A DNA stretch of 64,000 bases, taken from assembly GCA_017462035.1 (NCBI GenBank), contig JAFTRY010000030.1, forward strand, positions 874 through 64,873. Reading direction: 5' to 3'. The stretch comes from Clostridia bacterium (lineage in GTDB: Bacteria; Bacillota; Clostridia; Oscillospirales; CAG-272). Below, piece after piece: positions 514 to 34,226 of this stretch; the first letter of the stretch is position 1; each line of letters opens with the position of its first letter. The notes under the pieces were generated by a model, which was not told the origin of the DNA, did no database searches, and worked only from the letters and a program-made list of their open reading frames with translations. The translations under genes were made by a program, and so were the position numbers.

Positions 514-1971
514 ATGTATAAAAGTATATTCGCCAAGTACGTGGTATCGTTTATGGCAATTATCCTGGTCAGCTTTTTGATCATTATTCTCACCATATCC
601 TCCATCATTGGAGACTATTCCGGTCAGGCGAAGGCGGACATGATGAAAACGGCGGCACAATCCTCGGTTACTTACCTGGAAAATGAGTTAAAATTTCGGG
701 AGAGCTACGACCTAAAGACCCTGATCGAATCAGAGGAAGAAAATATCCGAGAGATGCTTGCAGTGTTGGCATCTAACGCAGAGGATCTTACCGTAGTGCT
801 GGTAGATGCCGACGGGGAGATCCATATGGCGGTTGGAAGCGATGAGGAGCAGGTGGAAATCGGTATGGCTTTGCCGGCGGAATTACTTCAGGAGGCGAAT
901 GAGCCTCAGGGAAGCTTTCTGTCCCAGAATACCGAACAATTTCAAATTTTCGATCAACCGCACTATCGATATGCCTGTCCCATATACGACGAGTCGGAAC
1001 AGCTTTGCGGCACCGTGTTTGTATGTGCTACCTCGGTAATGCTTACCGAGCTGATCGAGGTGATCGTAAAGACCATCGTCATTGCCAGTATCTGGGTTCT
1101 CCTGGCGTCTCTGATCGCGGCATACCTAATCAGCGAGAAGATCAGCGCGCCTCTGAAGGAGATCAGCAAGGCGGCGAAGAGCTTTGCCGCGGGTCGGTTT
1201 GATGTCCGTGTCCCGGTGCGGGGAGAGGACGAGGTGGCGGAGCTTGCTGTTGCTTTTAATAACATGGCGGAGTCGCTGAACAATTACGATAGAATGCAGA
1301 CGACCTTTATGTCCAATGTTTCTCATGACCTCCGTACTCCCATGACTTCCATTGCGGGTTTTATTGACGGGATCCTGGACGGTGTAATTCCTCCCGAAAA
1401 ATACGAGTACTATCTGAGTTTGGTAGCAACCGAGGTCAAACGACTTTCCCGGCTTGTAGCGTCCCTTCTCGATCTGTCCCGCATCCAAGCGGGTGAGCGG
1501 AAGTTCGTTATGTCTACCTTTGACGTGTGTGAAATGGGACGGCAGATTTTGATCTCCTTTGAGCAAAAGATCAATGAAAAACAACTGGATGTATCCTTTG
1601 ATTGTGATGAAGAATCTTTAAATGCGGTTGCAGATCGGGACGCGATCTATCAAGTATTCTATAATCTGTGCGATAACGGAGTAAAATTCGCGTCGGAGAA
1701 GGGATGCTTCCGCATTGCCGTTCGCAAATTAAAAAACAGAAGGGTCCTGGTTTCGGTGTATAACGAAGGTCAGGGAATTGCCGACGAGGATCTTCCGTAC
1801 ATCTTTGACCGCTTTTATAAGAGCGATAAGAGCCGAGGACTGAATAAATCCGGAGCCGGGCTTGGATTGTTCATATCGAAAACCATTGTGGAAGCCCACC
1901 ACGAACGGATTTGGGTGGAAAGCGAATACGGAAAAAACTGTTGTTTTAATTTTACACTGTCCGGTGAATAA
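514..1971 (+). CDS. Sensor histidine kinase (2 TM, HAMP, HisKA, HATPase)
   Basis: H-box SHDLRTPM, N-box NLCDNGVKF, G-box GAGLGLFI, HAMP (DEVAELAVAFNNMA); AAGGAG RBS before ATG 514. Confidence 0.95.
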   Translation: MYKSIFAKYVVSFMAIILVSFLIIILTISSIIGDYSGQAKADMMKTAAQSSVTYLENELKFRESYDLKTLIESEEENIREMLAVLASNAEDLTVVLVDADGEIHMAVGSDEEQVEIGMALPAELLQEANEPQGSFLSQNTEQFQIFDQPHYRYACPIYDESEQLCGTVFVCATSVMLTELIEVIVKTIVIASIWVLLASLIAAYLISEKISAPLKEISKAAKSFAAGRFDVRVPVRGEDEVAELAVAFNNMAESLNNYDRMQTTFMSNVSHDLRTPMTSIAGFIDGILDGVIPPEKYEYYLSLVATEVKRLSRLVASLLDLSRIQAGERKFVMSTFDVCEMGRQILISFEQKINEKQLDVSFDCDEESLNAVADRDAIYQVFYNLCDNGVKFASEKGCFRIAVRKLKNRRVLVSVYNEGQGIADEDLPYIFDRFYKSDKSRGLNKSGAGLGLFISKTIVEAHHERIWVESEYGKNCCFNFTLSGE

Positions 1972-2043
1972 AATAAATTCCTCCGACAAAAGAATAGAAT
2001 AGACGGAACAGATTTTTTTATTCTTTGTTAGGAGGTATGAGCA

Positions 2044-3615
2044 TTGATTCAAAAACGCCATTCCCAAAAAAGACGGGTTTCACCCTTTCCCGGTATTCGC
2101 CGCGGGACGGAGAAGTCTGCCGAAAGGACTCTCATCCGAGAAAAGGATGAGTCGGAGGAAACCATCTCCCCCGCGATGAGTCCCGATCCAATTGGTGATC
2201 TGGGCGACTGCAATGAGCAGGAATCGGAAAAGATGGGATTTATGGGTTGGGAACGGGACAGGATTTCCCGAGAGACCGATTCTCAACAAAAAAATATACC
2301 GAAAAGAGTGGTCTCCAACGTTCCCACAGTGCCTGAACCGGGACGCGTGGTGTGGGAGGAGCACAAGAAAAAAGAAGTAGCGGAGAGCCCCGAGGAGCGG
2401 AAGGAAGTGATCCGCAAGATACCCCCATCCGAGCCTTATACGCCACCGCCTCTCCACCGGGAGGAGAAAAAAGGGAGAGGAATTGGGAAATTATGCGTAG
2501 GGATTCTCACAGCCACTTTGCTATTAGCGTCCCTTACCCTGTTCGTTTCGGTGCTGGCAAGCCGCGCTTCCGAGGGCGAGTGGCAAGGAGAGGGTACGGC
2601 GAAGGATGAGGTCCCCGCAGATGTCCCGGTGAACGATTCCCCTGATAAGATCATTTTCGTGAAGCAGTATGACGATCAGAGCGGAATACTGACTACTGCT
2701 GAGCTCTATGCCAGATGTGCTGATTCGGTAGTGTCCATTCTTGCTCAAGGAGAGAAAAACTCCGGAGTAGGCTCTGGCTTCTTTATTACGTCGGACGGTT
2801 ATATTGCCACAGCCAATCATGTGGTAGAGGGTATGGAAAGTCTTACCGTGGTGGAGGCGGACGGAAGCCGTCATCGTGCCACGCTGGTGGCAGGCAATGC
2901 CCTTACCGATCTGGCACTGCTGAAAATTGAAAAGGAAGGATGCTCCGAGGTGGATTTTGCTTCCTCCGCCGATTTGTTGGTGGGGGAGAAGGTCGTGGCG
3001 ATCGGTACGCCGGCGGCACTGGACTATGCGGGCAGTGTCTGTACGGGAGAACTGTCATTCGTAGGAAGATCGGTCAAGATCTATGGTGATGACGGACAGA
3101 TTCAGAAAAAAATGACTCTTTTGCAGACCGATGCCCCCTTGAATCCGGGGAATTCAGGATGCCCGCTTTTTAATGAATATGGTCAGGTGGTTGGCATCGT
3201 TACGATGAAGCTGGGAAGCAGTTACGTGGGAATGGGATTTGCCATCCCCTCGTCAGGGGCAATGAAGATCCTCAGTGCCATGATGCGGGGGGAGGTGCTG
3301 ACCGAAGAGTTGCTGTCAGAGGTTAGTACCGTGGCACCCAGCCTCGGAATACTGGGAGAGGCTCAGACTGAGGAGGGGGTGTGCGGCGTTCGGGTTCTGG
3401 ACTTTTCGTCCGCTACCGCTCCCGTTTCCTATATTCTGAAAAAAGGAGATCTGATCGTACAGATCGACGGAACGCCCGTGGCGAACCGCTCGGACGTTAC
3501 CTCGGTGATCCAACAAAAAACACCGGGAGATATGGTAGCGGTCACCGTGCTCAGAGGCGGTCAGTGGTTGACCTTCCGCCTGGCACTGATGTCATCTGCA
3601 ACGGAATTGACCTAA
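2044..3615 (+). CDS. htrA: Membrane-anchored HtrA/DegP-family serine protease with PDZ domain
   Basis: Triad motifs TANHVV, DLALLK and GNSG; single TM segment; C-terminal PDZ (GDLIVQIDG); AGGAGG RBS 8 nt before TTG start. Confidence 0.9.
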   Translation: MIQKRHSQKRRVSPFPGIRRGTEKSAERTLIREKDESEETISPAMSPDPIGDLGDCNEQESEKMGFMGWERDRISRETDSQQKNIPKRVVSNVPTVPEPGRVVWEEHKKKEVAESPEERKEVIRKIPPSEPYTPPPLHREEKKGRGIGKLCVGILTATLLLASLTLFVSVLASRASEGEWQGEGTAKDEVPADVPVNDSPDKIIFVKQYDDQSGILTTAELYARCADSVVSILAQGEKNSGVGSGFFITSDGYIATANHVVEGMESLTVVEADGSRHRATLVAGNALTDLALLKIEKEGCSEVDFASSADLLVGEKVVAIGTPAALDYAGSVCTGELSFVGRSVKIYGDDGQIQKKMTLLQTDAPLNPGNSGCPLFNEYGQVVGIVTMKLGSSYVGMGFAIPSSGAMKILSAMMRGEVLTEELLSEVSTVAPSLGILGEAQTEEGVCGVRVLDFSSATAPVSYILKKGDLIVQIDGTPVANRSDVTSVIQQKTPGDMVAVTVLRGGQWLTFRLALMSSATELT

Positions 3616-30383: not shown

Positions 30384-30725
30384 ATGAATTTGATTCAGGC
30401 TTTTACAAACGAGCAGTTGAAGACCGAAGTACCGGAAATCAACATTGGTGACACCATTCGTGTGCACAACAAGATCAAGGAAGGAACCCGTGAGAGAATC
30501 CAGATGTTCGAGGGAACCGTAATCGCGAAGCATGGCGGCGGAATTTCCGAGACCTTCACCGTAAGACGCGTGTCCTACGGCTGTGGAATTGAGAAGACCT
30601 TCCCGATCCACTCTCCCAACGTAGAACAGGTTGACATTATCCGCTCCGGTAAGGTTAGAAGAGCAAAGCTCTACTACCTGCGCGACAGAGTTGGTAAGGC
30701 ATCCAAGGTTAAAGAGAAGATCTAA
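30384..30725 (+). CDS. rplS: 50S ribosomal protein L19
   Basis: [16 protein letters not shown] and [12 protein letters not shown] motifs. Confidence 0.99.
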
Positions 30726-30845: not shown

Positions 30846-30881
30846 AAAAAACATTGCCCGCCATCCGAGGATGGCGGGCAA
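30846..30881 (-). terminator. Terminator of the secreted-protein/peptide operon
   Basis: TTGCCCGCCATCC/GGATGGCGGGCAA perfect 13-bp arms followed by a T run on the minus strand. Confidence 0.85.
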
Positions 30882-30925: not shown

Positions 30926-31066
30926 TCAGTTCTGAGTACCGAAGAAGGTGCCGAAGTCCAGCGTATCCAACTGTTCACTGTTGCTGTAATCACCGGAGTT
31001 AAAGGTAATACAATCAGCGGACTGGAGAACAATCATTTCAATTTCAGGTGTAGTATATTTTTTCAT
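30926..31066 (-). CDS. 46-aa small peptide MKKYTTPEIEMIVLQSADCITFNSGDYSNSEQLDTLDFGTFFGTQN (YxxPxI leader-like); not in the ORF track
   Basis: Translated by hand; AAAGGAGG RBS 8 nt before the ATG, directly after the upstream stop codon and before a strong terminator. Confidence 0.8.
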   Translation of the reverse strand: MKKYTTPEIEMIVLQSADCITFNSGDYSNSEQLDTLDFGTFFGTQN

Positions 31067-31084
31067 TTCATCGTCCTCCTTTAC

Positions 31085-32281
31085 TTATTCAGATACGACA
31101 GCAACCGTATTGCTGGAGGCTGTATACTGTACGGTACTTGAGGCAGTACCCTCATAGACCGATCCGTTATCTCCGCCAACTCTGTAAATAGCCGTAAAGT
31201 TAATGGTTACGTCCTCGGTCAAGCTATGAATATGCAGAGCATAGATGTGGGACGCGCCACTCTTCATCTCCGAAGGCTGGGTGGGCGTATCGGTTCCCCA
31301 CTCAGTAATGCTGCTGTAAACGTAATTGCAGAAAATGTCCTTGGTAACAGGTTCCGCGCCTGCCTTGGTCATGGTGACTCTGAAGCCGACCGCATCTGCC
31401 CTGCCGAATATCTCGTTGTCGATCAAGCCGAGCAAACGAACGCTGTTCTTACTTTCGGTATTTACCGAAATAGTACCGGTCTGAACACCGTAAGCCGCAG
31501 GGAATTCCTCAGTGGTCGTGGGAAGCTCAGCGATCGTAATGCTGTCAAGATAAATGTTAACATCGAAGCCCATCCAGAAACCAATGTTACCGGTCATAAA
31601 GCTTTGAAGAGCCGTAGCAGCAGTCAATTCGGCTGCCGTGTAGCTACTGCGTACGCTCCACTCGTTCAAATTCTGGGGAACGGAATCCTTCTTACCTTGA
31701 TGTGCCCAAATTTGAATACCCTTCTCTTGGCTTCCTTCAATGCGAACGGTATACCAACCGGCGGAAGCATCAAAGGACTCCGCTCCACTATTTTGGTCTG
31801 CAGGGAAGCTGCTTTGATTTTTGTAAGTGTTCATCAGAGTGCCGTTTGCATAAAACCGTGCGTGCCAGGTATATGCACCATAGTTACCGGCATTGCCCAT
31901 AAAGCCGACAAACTCATTAGCAGTATCGGTGTCAACAAACTTAAACTCATAGGTAATAACAAAGCCATCACTTAGAGTGGTATCGTTTATCACAGCATAT
32001 TTTCCTGCTTTGCTCGCTTCGGTTTCCAAATGTATCACATAGTTGTTCGCATCCGTAGGATCCACAATCACCTCAGGAGCATTAGCCGCATTTGTCGAGC
32101 TCGCTGACCAACCAATTGCGCTTAAAACGGTTGCCGCGTCAGCACCTGTAGCCAAGTTAAGACTGTCAAAATCCTGCTCGTAAGCAGTCGCGGACGTGGT
32201 TGCCGCTACGCTGGGCACCAGCATGGTAAAGGTAGCAAGTACCATTACCAGCGCCAGTACCGCTGATAAAATTTTTTTCAT
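31085..32281 (-). CDS. Secreted protein: signal peptide, ConA/LamG-like beta-sandwich and an uncharacterised C-terminal beta-rich domain
   Basis: Sec signal MKKILSAVLALVMVLATFTMLVPSVAA; motifs YEQDFDS, WYTVRIE and IYLDSITI; PTTTEE linker; domain calls are inferred. Confidence 0.75.
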   Translation of the reverse strand: MKKILSAVLALVMVLATFTMLVPSVAATTSATAYEQDFDSLNLATGADAATVLSAIGWSASSTNAANAPEVIVDPTDANNYVIHLETEASKAGKYAVINDTTLSDGFVITYEFKFVDTDTANEFVGFMGNAGNYGAYTWHARFYANGTLMNTYKNQSSFPADQNSGAESFDASAGWYTVRIEGSQEKGIQIWAHQGKKDSVPQNLNEWSVRSSYTAAELTAATALQSFMTGNIGFWMGFDVNIYLDSITIAELPTTTEEFPAAYGVQTGTISVNTESKNSVRLLGLIDNEIFGRADAVGFRVTMTKAGAEPVTKDIFCNYVYSSITEWGTDTPTQPSEMKSGASHIYALHIHSLTEDVTINFTAIYRVGGDNGSVYEGTASSTVQYTASSNTVAVVSE

Positions 32282-32392: not shown

Positions 32393-32421
32393 ATTATAGC
32401 ACAACATTTTCCATAATTCAA
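32393..32421 (-). promoter_or_regulatory. sigma-A promoter for the secreted-protein operon
   Basis: TTGAAT-17 nt-TATAAT with extended -10 TG. Confidence 0.7.
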
Positions 32422-32511
32422 TTCTTTTTTGCATAAAAATAGAGCCAAAAACTTTGTTTCTGGCTCATGTTTGTTGAAATTTATTTACGGCATGATGAAA
32501 TTTTACAATTT

Positions 32512-33390
32512 TTATCCGTATAATTTATGCATTTTTGCCTTTCGCTCTTCCGCCAGCTTCACGTATTCCTTGGGGGTCATTCCCGTATGTCTCTTGAAGA
32601 AGGAGTAAAAGTAGATATCATTATCAAATCCGCATTTTGGGGCGATCTGCTTGATGGTCATATCGTTATCCAATAAGTAATTCTTTGCCAGGTTCAATCT
32701 GGCGAGTCCGATAAAATCTCCGATGCTCATCTGCACGTGGGTACGGAAATCCCGGCACAGTTTATCGCGGCTGACAAAAAAGCGATCCGCGATTTCGGGA
32801 ATCACCAGGTTTTGCTCCAGGTTTCTGACCATGTAAAGCATGACCTCTGAAATGTAGTGTTTTTGGCTGATGCGGAAGCCCACGTCGGGGCGGCGGCTAT
32901 ATTCATGCAACAGGCTGACTACCACCGCCGACAACATTCTTTGGTTCGTGGTTGCCACCCGAGCACCGGAAAACCGTCCCGTCATATCCACCAGATCGCG
33001 GCTTACCCGGTGAAACAGGGGCTCACACTGATTGAGATTCAAGATCACCGCCTGGCTGTTTCCCAAAATATCCTTAATGGGCACCGCGTCCGCTCCCATG
33101 TCCCGAATATACTGATCGTCAAAATACAGGACGTTTCGGTTTATTTTGGTATAAGAGGAGGACAGAAAGTAGGTAAAGTGCATGCAATAGGGGGACGTGA
33201 TGATTGCCATGGGGTAATCAGTCTCAATATATCTACCGTTAATGATCGTGGAGCATTTTGCCGGCTCAAAAAACCAAAATACCTCATACTGAGGATGCAA
33301 ATGAAACAGGGTAACATCTTGATCGGGGGTAATGACAGGGTAACCCAATTCCACCACCAGGTCCGGTCCGTAGTCCCAAAAAACCTTCAT
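32512..33390 (-). CDS. AraC-family transcriptional regulator
   Basis: Cupin-like FHLHPQYE at the N-terminus; double HTH (IADRFFVSRDKLCRDF; CGFDNDIYFYSFFKRHTGMTPKEY); AAAGGAG RBS. Confidence 0.92.
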   Translation of the reverse strand: MKVFWDYGPDLVVELGYPVITPDQDVTLFHLHPQYEVFWFFEPAKCSTIINGRYIETDYPMAIITSPYCMHFTYFLSSSYTKINRNVLYFDDQYIRDMGADAVPIKDILGNSQAVILNLNQCEPLFHRVSRDLVDMTGRFSGARVATTNQRMLSAVVVSLLHEYSRRPDVGFRISQKHYISEVMLYMVRNLEQNLVIPEIADRFFVSRDKLCRDFRTHVQMSIGDFIGLARLNLAKNYLLDNDMTIKQIAPKCGFDNDIYFYSFFKRHTGMTPKEYVKLAEERKAKMHKLYG

Positions 33391-33541
33391 AATCCAATCT
33401 CCTTTTCTTTGGAGTTTTTGTACCGTCACTTATATATTATCATAGTTTCTCTCCTTTTTCAAGGCTTTTACTCAGATTTTTACGGATTTTTATTTACGAA
33501 AGCTACGATATTGAAGGAAAAAAGGGAAATTTACTCATATC

Positions 33542-33608: not shown

Positions 33609-34226
33609 TTACGTCTTGCTCTTCAACAGATCACGGATCTCCTTGAGCAGATCCTCCGCGCTGGGATTGGCTTCCTTTTCCAAGCGAGCCGCTTCCTCAG
33701 CCGCCTTTGCCGCCGCTTCTTCCGCCGCCTTAGCATCAGCCGCCGCCTGCTCCTTCGCCGCGTAGAATGCCGCAATCGCCGCCTTGTCCGAACGCTTGAT
33801 ACCCTTCGCCTTCATTTCCTTGTGGTCTGCCTTCTTTTGCTTCTTCGCGGAGATCAGCCCGTTCGCGAACTCCATGTTTCCCTCACGGAACTTGTTCAGA
33901 ATCTTTACAATGCAGAAGAGAACAAAGGCAATGAGCAGGAAGTTGATGACGGCGTTGATGAACGCGCCCCAGTCAATGTAAATGGATTCCTTCAGATCAA
34001 GAGCCCCCGTGTCGTCGTACACAGCCTGCAATACCGTGTATACCTCGCTGAGGCTGTCCTTTCCAAAGATCAGGACCAACAGCCAGTTGATCAGAGGCTT
34101 GAGAATATTGTTGCTCAGACCGTTGACAATTGCCGTGAAGGAACTACCAACGATAACACCGACAGCCATGTCAAGAACATTGCCGCGGGTAATGAATTTT
34201 TTGAATTCGCCAAAAAACTTTTTCAT
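33609..34226 (-). CDS. mscL: Large-conductance mechanosensitive channel (elongated)
   Basis: EFKKFITRGNVLDMAVGVIVG, GAFINAVINFLLIAFVLF and LLKEIRDLLK motifs. Confidence 0.93.
   Translation of the reverse strand: MKKFFGEFKKFITRGNVLDMAVGVIVGSSFTAIVNGLSNNILKPLINWLLVLIFGKDSLSEVYTVLQAVYDDTGALDLKESIYIDWGAFINAVINFLLIAFVLFCIVKILNKFREGNMEFANGLISAKKQKKADHKEMKAKGIKRSDKAAIAAFYAAKEQAAADAKAAEEAAAKAAEEAARLEKEANPSAEDLLKEIRDLLKSKT

Follow-up and report, generated by a model that had tools for sequence, protein, structure and literature searches.

The window analysed here is the whole 64,000-nucleotide stretch of contig JAFTRY010000030.1 from a Clostridia bacterium (Oscillospirales, CAG-272; assembly GCA_017462035.1). 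Near its middle lies a hidden open reading frame (ORF) of 46 codons, directly behind a gene for a secreted protein. An earlier note, made from the letters of the window, had proposed that this ORF encodes a precursor of a peptide that is made by ribosomes and modified after translation (RiPP), with a YxxPxI leader and processed in trans. The translation that it quoted is exactly that of the DNA; the strand, which it did not give, is the minus strand. The features of the locus are as follows.

32393..32421, minus strand: promoter-like site, TTGAAT, 17 nt, TATAAT, with an extended -10 TG (consensus scan, 10/12 matches)
31085..32281, minus strand: gene for a 398-residue Sec-secreted protein, first gene of the likely operon (translation)
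31075..31082, minus strand: ribosome-binding site (RBS) AAAGGAGG, 8-nt spacing to the ATG (read from the sequence)
31066..30926, minus strand: the ORF, 46 codons, ATG at 31066 (read from the sequence)
31004..31066, minus strand: predicted leader, residues 1-21, MKKYTTPEIEMIVLQSADCIT, with motif residues Y4, P7 and I9 and with Thr21 as predicted last residue (alignment)
30929..31003, minus strand: predicted core, residues 22-46, FNSGDYSNSEQLDTLDFGTFFGTQN, acidic and aromatic-rich (alignment, and the spacing of the LPP pathway discussed below)
30926..30928, minus strand: stop codon TGA (read from the sequence)
30854..30881, minus strand: terminator-like hairpin, 12 pairs, 8 of them G-C, loop of 4, tail TGTTTTTTGT (hairpin scan)

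The upstream gene ends in a TAA at 31087..31085, leaving 18 nt between that stop codon and the ATG of the peptide, and the promoter-like site lies about 110 nt upstream of the secreted-protein gene. An AraC-type gene on the same strand (32512..33429) lies farther upstream and has its own terminator-like hairpin (32466..32442) just before the promoter-like site. Judged from these signals, a two-gene transcript running from promoter through secreted protein and peptide to terminator is likely. The RBS AAAGGAGG at 31082..31075 with its 8-nt spacing, the 18-nt gap and the strong terminator (the 12-pair hairpin and T run at 30881..30854) had all been described in the earlier note and are borne out by the DNA. 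The same is true of the secretion signals: the 398-residue product of the upstream gene has a typical Sec signal peptide, and inspection of the 46-residue peptide reveals no hydrophobic stretch that could serve as one. A scan of 18 ORFs between 24015 and 42287 of the window found no RRE, peptidase, cyclase or radical-SAM gene, in agreement with the note's remark that no lasso cyclase, peptidase, RRE or radical-SAM gene is adjacent. The hairpin at 30854..30881 is symmetric and would act as a terminator on both strands, so that it would also serve the convergent rplS gene (30384..30725, plus strand).

The genome (1.74 Mb, 34 contigs, 85.8% complete) holds three copies of the peptide gene, on contigs C11, C16 (the window) and C23, which encode peptides about 90% identical among themselves. 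Each of the three is found directly behind a gene for a paralogous protein of about 390-400 residues with a signal peptide. When the DNA of the three copies is compared, likeness is restricted to the region from RBS through stop codon: 110 of 126 ORF columns are invariant vs 14 of 49 upstream of the RBS and 20 of 73 past the stop, and the AAGGAGGACGAT of the RBS is the same in all three. Variable sites number 5, 4 and 15 at codon positions 1, 2 and 3, respectively. Eleven variable codons carry synonymous changes only vs six with residue changes, and three of these six are the last three codons. Because conservation is confined to the interval from RBS to stop and the changes are biased towards synonymous ones, the ORF is a real gene under coding selection.

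Relatives of the peptide were sought at increasing distance. A word-indexed search gave six candidates, all of which proved to be relatives (41-46 residues, 72-91% identity). A profile of nine sequences, run against 1.84 billion representative proteins, gave 25 matches, of which 19 are peptides of 34-49 residues and the remaining six are long proteins (603-2385 residues) matched in short repeated stretches (P0026, P0031, P0034, P0036, P0037 and P0040). A pattern scan of one genome per species identified nine loci, every one in a Clostridia metagenome-assembled genome. With an alignment of 37 sequences (A4), a family match was detected in 65 of 301 sampled genomes of the order at E values up to 0.01, although a few of these matches are inside long ORFs and are probably false. 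Up to 11 copies are found per genome. The 1.8-Mb genome G165 (loci L029, L033 and L036 plus eight further matches) contains 11 family members and a single peptidase gene, the most precursors per enzyme set among the 301 genomes.

The family has a common layout, with a conserved 21-residue leader, MKKYxxPEhEhhxhxxxDhIT, followed by a variable acidic tail. In a pooled set of 77 distinct peptides (the 37 of alignment A4 and 40 sampled from the 301-genome search), YxxPx[ILVMFA] is present near the N-terminus of 75, and [DE]x[ILVM]T in 68, with a distance of 17 residues from Tyr to Thr in 66 of these 68. After the Thr, a Ser follows as T-x-S in 50 peptides, as T-x-x-S in 13, as both in four and as neither in one. 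The part past the Thr is 11-43 residues long (median 22), net-negative in 68/68, and has an aromatic residue within the last six positions in 59/68. Since a leader profile was used to find the members, the leader features follow partly by construction; those of the tail do not. Cores cannot be aligned across subfamilies. The earlier note's bipartite description of the peptide itself needs qualification. Across nine close relatives, residues 1-22 are invariant except at positions 5 and 9, but conservation also extends into the tail, with SGDY and D.LDFG.FF retained and with S24, G25, Y27, Q32, D34, L36, F38, F41 and F42 invariant.

Family libraries do not name these peptides. No Pfam or NCBIfam model matches the window peptide, and NCBIfam run over the 37 members of A4 gave merely three single-member chance matches (E 0.017-0.13), none of them relevant. 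The peptide profile had no match in the PDB at E values up to 10, and in the ESM Atlas only unnamed clusters of 44-48 residues were recovered, with a score of 0.91.

Genes that could act on such a leader were found elsewhere in the same genome. A search with the PqqD model PF05402 gave one strong match (E 1e-15), on contig C24, in a tight operon (locus L015, G000:C24:121600-141500) that encodes, in order, a 219-residue membrane protein, a 236-residue P-loop protein, an 87-residue PqqD protein and a 162-residue peptidase whose gene overlaps the PqqD stop codon. The earlier note had suggested looking for PqqD or RRE and for S24/S26 peptidase genes, and both types are thus present, in one operon with a protein of HprK fold. 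The gene for the 219-residue membrane protein (L015:8410-9069, plus strand), which directly precedes the kinase-like gene, belongs to no Pfam or NCBIfam family.

The 236-residue protein (L015 9186-9896) has an SGTGKST P-loop. PDB searches by sequence with it and with the peptidase gave chance matches alone (E 0.2 and 0.37), and a fold search was therefore needed for the kinase-like protein. Its AlphaFold2 model has a pLDDT (predicted local distance difference test) of 93.9, and the best Foldseek matches are the HprK/P structures 1kkm, 1kkl and 1jb1 (E 3e-6 to 9e-6), headed by 1kkm from L. casei (E 3e-6), with phosphoenolpyruvate carboxykinases ranking after HprK/P. By its modelled structure this protein is an HPr-kinase-fold, LppK-like kinase, with predicted activity. 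The 87-residue PqqD protein has its best NCBIfam matches among lasso PqqD chaperones, under their cut-offs, and the RRE profile matched TbiB1 (1.4e-10), TfuB1 (6.7e-9), PbaB1 (9x90, 3.2e-6) and LppB (9x8z_B, 4.8e-5) in the PDB. In the 162-residue peptidase, S33 (within G-T-S-M-L-P), H73-R74 and G88-D89 are invariant in 12/12 homologs and correspond to the signal-peptidase-I boxes G-x-S-M-x-P, H-R and G-D; NCBIfam returned weak matches to sigpep_I_arch (2e-5) and SipW (0.003). The catalytic part is N-terminal and is followed by a single C-terminal hydrophobic segment, a domain layout that suggests a cytoplasm-facing, tail-anchored enzyme. A nucleotidyltransferase gene of family PF14907 is found on contig C29, adjoining SIS and HAD genes.

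The genome's sole other RRE-bearing gene, a second and weak PqqD match on contig C6, is the N-terminus of a SCIFF maturase. It was considered as a processor of the peptide and rejected, since it is the TIGR03974 equivalog (754 bits) and is adjoined by a SCIFF precursor of its own. The radical SAM/SPASM maturase (L013:313-1698, minus strand) has the six-cysteine precursor directly upstream (1820-2104, minus strand), and this SCIFF/ranthipeptide system is ordinary for Clostridia.

A search of the 301 genomes used for the peptide, now with the 162-residue peptidase as query and at E values up to 1e-5, detected this enzyme in 95 of them. Both genes are present in 58 genomes, the peptide only in seven, the peptidase only in 37 and neither in 199; the peptidase thus occurs in 58/65 peptide-positive vs 37/236 other genomes, an odds ratio of 44.6. 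Stratification over 30 taxonomic families gives a Mantel-Haenszel odds ratio of 46.6 (p = 4e-13), but these statistics overstate the association because related genomes are not independent. The coincidences within families are a stronger argument than the overall statistics. In seven families with at least 10 genomes sampled, the peptide was seen in just one or two genomes. For five of the seven (f10, f14, f15, f20 and f30), the lone genome with the peptide carries the peptidase as well; the same holds for one of the two positive genomes of f19, and the sole peptide match of f9 is a probable false positive.

Peptide and enzymes are also neighbors in some genomes. By their coordinates, peptide and peptidase share a contig and are 1.2-7.2 kb apart in at least eight genomes. 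In six such clusters (L022-L027), the order is a large secreted protein, the peptide, sometimes an SLH protein or lipoprotein, the HprK-like protein, PqqD, the peptidase, an ABC exporter (588-614 residues) and PF14907, with exporter and PF14907 both found in L022, L024, L025 and L026. No cyclase or B2 peptidase family was detected among the scanned ORFs of L022-L027, and each has an S26-like peptidase. Two of the nine loci found via the peptide alone also carry enzyme genes: in L006 a kinase-like gene begins 15 nt past the peptide and is followed by PqqD, in a locus cut by the contig end, and in L011 a kinase-like gene lies 1 kb from the peptide. By BLAST (E up to 1e-4), 13 loci outside this genome hold at least one of kinase, PqqD and peptidase, and nine hold all three in identical order; the partial loci are L018 (PqqD and peptidase), L017 (peptidase only), L011 (kinase-like only) and the contig-cut L006. 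In L027 (G217:C63:33000-48000), the kinase, PqqD and peptidase genes are located amid a Bac_transf sugar-phosphate transferase, a family-2 glycosyltransferase and a B12-binding radical SAM protein, next to an SLH protein, a setting that parallels the capsule-locus association in Bacilli and hints at glycan attachment.

The earlier note had proposed co-folding the peptide with a candidate RRE. Prediction of the complex between the PqqD protein and the peptide gave a score of 0.49 vs 0.00 for the best of three controls; at least 96% of contacts are shared among the runs, and the pLDDT of the partner is at least 52. The score mark is reached by 58 of 80 solved complexes and by two of 110 mismatched pairs, but among those reaching it at a score of 0.60 or less are just seven of the 80 solved complexes and both passing mismatches. 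The result, which stands above its controls, thus lends weak support to binding, and the score may reflect memory because like complexes have been solved (9x8z, 5v1v).

A pathway with these components has been described in Bacilli. Linear polyphosphorylated peptides (LPPs; Popov et al., Nat Commun 2026, PMC13381572) are encoded by clusters in Bacillota, and the cyclase-less pathway is exemplified by lppA-K-B-S-D-N of Paenibacillus alginolyticus DSM5050. According to that paper, the precursors are 35-200 residues long and combine a conserved YxxPxVLxHQxIxFETxxS leader with variable C-termini. LppK adds up to four phosphates to core Ser3 in B. subtilis, and LppS is an archaeal/SipW-type signal-peptidase-I-like leader peptidase with the triad S29/H68/D93 that cuts after T-1. 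LppS requires LppB, is poor on unphosphorylated precursor and is affected in its cleavage by F-3 and E-2; LppB is a discrete RRE, LppN a nucleoside triphosphate transferase and LppD an MsbA-like exporter (PMC13381572). The authors state that the biological role of LPPs is unknown. A literature search found no second LPP publication.

Since gene set, leader motif and T-x-x-S junction match the LPP pathway of Bacilli, we consider it probable that the ORF encodes an LPP-type precursor, the second gene behind a Sec-secreted lectin-like protein, which is matured in trans by the C24 genes. The window peptide reads Y4-T-T-P7-E-I9 ... T21-F-N-S24, that is, YxxPx[V/I], a predicted terminal leader Thr, T-x-x-S spacing and a variable C-terminus as published for LPPs; a kinase, a discrete RRE next to a peptidase and a Ser/His/Asp signal-peptidase-like enzyme are all found, in trans on C24; no macrolactam cyclase or B2 peptidase was found in the 85.8%-complete genome or among the scanned ORFs of the six related clusters; and the L027 genes are found amid polysaccharide genes, as in Bacilli. 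Most likely, going by these sequence features, the system is a divergent Clostridial branch of the LPP pathway. The note's view that the ORF encodes a RiPP-type precursor, has a YxxPxI leader and is matured in trans is supported by the C24 operon, the co-occurrence in 58/65 vs 37/236 genomes and the loci in which the genes are neighbors, with the correction that the gene set is that of the cyclase-less LPP pathway and not of a lasso system.

The steps may be as follows, by homology and genomic association as regards binding, phosphorylation, cleavage site, export and product function. The stand-alone PqqD protein would bind the leader at Y4-x-x-P7-x-I9 as an added beta-strand. The HPr-kinase-fold kinase would then phosphorylate Ser24, which as core position 3 is the predicted phosphorylation site by analogy with LppA, possibly several times. 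The tail-anchored, cytoplasm-facing Ser/His/Asp peptidase would cut after Thr21, a site predicted from the cut of LppA after T-1, and the acidic 25-residue core would be exported by an ABC pump. It may be decorated further by the PF14907 nucleotidyltransferase of contig C29.

Several observations weigh against this interpretation, in addition to the non-independence of the genomes. The peptidase went undetected in seven of the 65 peptide-positive genomes, and in 37 other genomes it was detected but the peptide was not; among the seven, one match is inside a 576-residue ORF and three genomes are 75-87% complete. No dedicated exporter stands out in the window genome, where the search for ABC genes that the note had suggested gave 11 generic matches of 23-34% identity. 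Compared with the published LPP motif, the distance from Tyr to Thr is 17 residues rather than the 15 that we count there, and C19-I20-T21 replaces F-E-T, though cleavage by LppS was sensitive to F-3 and E-2. By sequence, the RRE profile lies closer to actinobacterial lasso B1 proteins than to LppB (PMC13381572 for the LPP side of these comparisons). Four sequencing runs were found, of which three hold the stretch; two of these three may come from the source sample, and no RNA run that holds it is listed among the four. Lastly, LPP-type maturation leaves the position behind a secreted-protein gene unaccounted for.

This position is a regular one. Forty loci from 34 genomes were picked from the better-scoring rows of the 301-genome peptide search. 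In 27 of them, an ORF of 80 or more residues on the same strand has its 3' end in the interval from 8 nt inside the peptide ORF to 36 nt ahead of its ATG. By a crude signal-peptide rule, 22 of these 27 upstream ORFs pass, vs 29 of 106 other complete ORFs of at least 200 residues at the same loci, and three of the five that fail are cut by a contig end. One genus is an exception to the usual placement: at loci L041, L043 and L064 (genomes G060, G136 and G082), the peptide core ends in GDGDWENFGDLFG and the peptide gene lies 172-255 nt behind that of a small membrane protein (84-146 residues) rather than a large secreted protein, and in G136 and G082 it is about 7 kb from the peptidase.

The secreted protein of the window comprises a signal peptide, a concanavalin-A-like jelly-roll (residues ~32-252) and a C-terminal beta-sandwich (~262-395), in an AlphaFold2 model with a mean pLDDT of 73.7. 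It belongs to no Pfam or NCBIfam family, and Foldseek returned generic lectin/alginate-lyase-type jelly-roll matches alone (8-18% identity). Matches to the binding domain of clostridial neurotoxins reflect generic jelly-roll likeness (8-13% identity, template-modelling score 0.22-0.31) and are no sign of a toxin. The three paralogous secreted proteins are 46-47% identical in a MAFFT alignment. Their signal peptides are near-identical (MKK.LS.VLALVMVLATFTMLVP) and their mature parts about 40-47% identical (window 31085..32281, minus strand; L001:6159-7367, minus strand; L002:4806-5981, plus strand); either the 5' ends have been homogenized or the signal peptide is under selection.

The upstream proteins of other loci are heterogeneous: GDSL lipase with an Ig-like domain, BspA-type leucine-rich repeats, beta-helix, cadherin-like/LTD, or no recognized domain. 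No SLH, dockerin, LPXTG-anchor or cell-wall-binding domain is present in 13 partner proteins scanned with Pfam, and inspection of 27 upstream-protein C-termini revealed no LPXTG-type anchor. All-against-all BLAST of 14 proteins encoded at or near peptide genes found local families only, and a profile of the C-terminal beta-sandwich, iterated to convergence over 1393 ORFs, recovered proteins only at L029, L033, L036 and L042. A universal partner domain is ruled out at the sensitivity of BLAST and iterated profiles used here. Placement behind secreted-protein genes may reflect co-regulation alone or a functional pairing with the exported peptide.

The same placement is the basis of the alternative that survives best, a variant of the earlier note's second option (a partner or tag of the upstream protein). 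Here the peptide would function through its pairing with that secreted protein rather than through RiPP chemistry, whether as an extracellular adaptor, a pro-peptide acting in trans or an escort in the cytoplasm; the kinase/PqqD/peptidase operon would then be a mere export or trimming route, or unrelated. All three genome copies follow paralogous secreted proteins, the excess of signal peptides among the 27 close upstream ORFs is evident, the pairing holds even inside the full clusters L023, L024, L025 and L027, and core motifs are conserved among close relatives. We nevertheless think this unlikely, given that the upstream proteins share no common domain, that the C-terminal domain of the window protein occurs in just four other partner proteins among the 1393 ORFs, that peptides behind proteins with the same domain have unrelated cores, and that the peptide lacks a signal peptide of its own.

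A role as a secreted signalling peptide, sensed for example by the neighboring AraC-type regulator and phosphorylated only incidentally, concerns the function of the product and is compatible with LPP-type maturation. The AraC-family gene at 32512..33429 is directly upstream on the same strand, and signalling peptides typically combine a conserved leader with variable cores. We regard it as quite improbable: the scanned neighbors of the other two copies (MatE, ATPase_2, peptidase U32, metallo-beta-lactamase and PSP1) include no AraC gene, no regulator recurs across the nine loci of the pattern scan, and the AraC gene has its own terminator-like site.

It is very improbable that the peptide is a true lasso precursor whose cyclase and B2 peptidase are encoded in the 14% of the genome that is missing from the assembly. 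The leader's YxxPx[L/I] motif and conserved Thr, the lasso B1 proteins that head the NCBIfam and PDB matches of the RRE, and the 85.8% completeness of the assembly would all fit. However, the transglutaminase-like B2 peptidase family PF13471, which the earlier note had listed among the genes to look for, has no match in this genome, and the sole match to the asparagine-synthase (cyclase) family PF00733 is GMP synthase; the L022-L027 clusters have an S26-like peptidase in place of these families. Lasso cores usually begin with Gly, Ala, Ser or Cys, and the core here would begin with Phe or Asn.

That the ORF is a decaying or untranslated remnant is scarcely credible. The maturation genes do lie elsewhere, but all three copies are intact, with synonymous-biased changes, an invariant RBS and conservation confined to the ORF, and intact relatives occur in many genomes.

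Elsewhere in the window, the MscL gene (33609..34226, minus strand) encodes 205 residues vs the usual ~130. A coiled-coil extension is suggested by the extra ~75 C-terminal residues, which weakly match the ATP-synthase subunit b and Spore_III_AF profiles.

If LPP-type maturation is correct, a divergent LPP branch is common in uncultured gut Clostridia, with the peptidase in 95 and the peptide in 65 of 301 genomes of one order. Its substrates would form a large family of small genes unnamed by gene callers and family libraries, usually dispersed and attached to the 3' end of secreted-protein genes, an attachment that is the first concrete lead to the role of such peptides. As a rule for annotation, hidden precursors should be sought far from orphan kinase/PqqD/peptidase operons. 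In Bacilli, LPP precursors lie inside the cluster (PMC13381572), and dispersed copies behind Sec-secreted proteins go unmentioned in the main text of that paper, where the words secreted, surface, cell wall, extracellular, signal peptide, distant, elsewhere, orphan, in trans and Clostridi do not occur; its supplements may list Clostridial clusters. RRE-Finder gave almost 8,000 proteins whose best match is the discrete lasso RRE model; a lasso peptidase and cyclase accompany only about 4,000 of them, and the remainder were called possible false positives (PMC7470986). The Clostridial system would explain part of these ~4,000 unassigned lasso-like stand-alone RREs.

A bolder idea, which we hold as possible though doubtful, is that Clostridial LPP-type peptides are companions of individual secreted proteins and not free-standing natural products. 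Each large, anchor-less Sec-exported protein would then be co-transcribed with its own leader-tagged acidic peptide, and a single shared kinase/RRE/peptidase set would phosphorylate the peptides, to which a glycan may be added through the phosphate, and send them out by a separate export route. At the cell surface, the exported peptide would work as an adaptor for its cognate protein, which it would tether, activate or mark there. This would amount to two-route, peptide-assisted surface display, and the LPP family would gain a function.

Compared with the LPPs of Bacilli, the system differs in its host, and the Ser is mostly at core position 2 in the Clostridial family (T-x-S in 50/68) and not at position 3 as in the published pathway (PMC13381572). 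Its precursor genes are dispersed (three here, up to 11 elsewhere), far from the enzymes and directly behind genes for Sec-secreted proteins. The kinase-containing lasso clusters of the paeninodin type in Bacillota share the YxxP/WxxP leader, a discrete B1-type RRE, an HprK-like kinase, a nucleotidyltransferase and an ABC exporter (PMC13381572, PMC7533575). Unlike them, the Clostridial system has no cyclase and no transglutaminase-like B2 peptidase. Because a serine signal-peptidase-like enzyme replaces B2, the product is expected to be linear.

In genomic organization the system resembles the prochlorosin type, in which one maturation enzyme serves many scattered precursors with a shared leader and hypervariable cores; here too, many dispersed precursors of one leader would be served in trans by a single enzyme set. 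Prochlorosins differ in their lanthionine chemistry, and their precursor genes are not known to be systematically placed at the 3' end of secreted-protein genes. The C24 peptidase is of the same S26B type as SipW, the dedicated ER-type signal peptidase for the biofilm proteins TasA and TapA in Bacillus subtilis, and bona fide SipW enzymes form a similarity cluster neighboring that of LppS (PMC13381572). In SipW, which removes Sec signal peptides, the active site lies on the outer side of the membrane, whereas the C24 peptidase has no N-terminal anchor, places its catalytic domain before a single C-terminal segment and is encoded in an operon with an RRE and a kinase.

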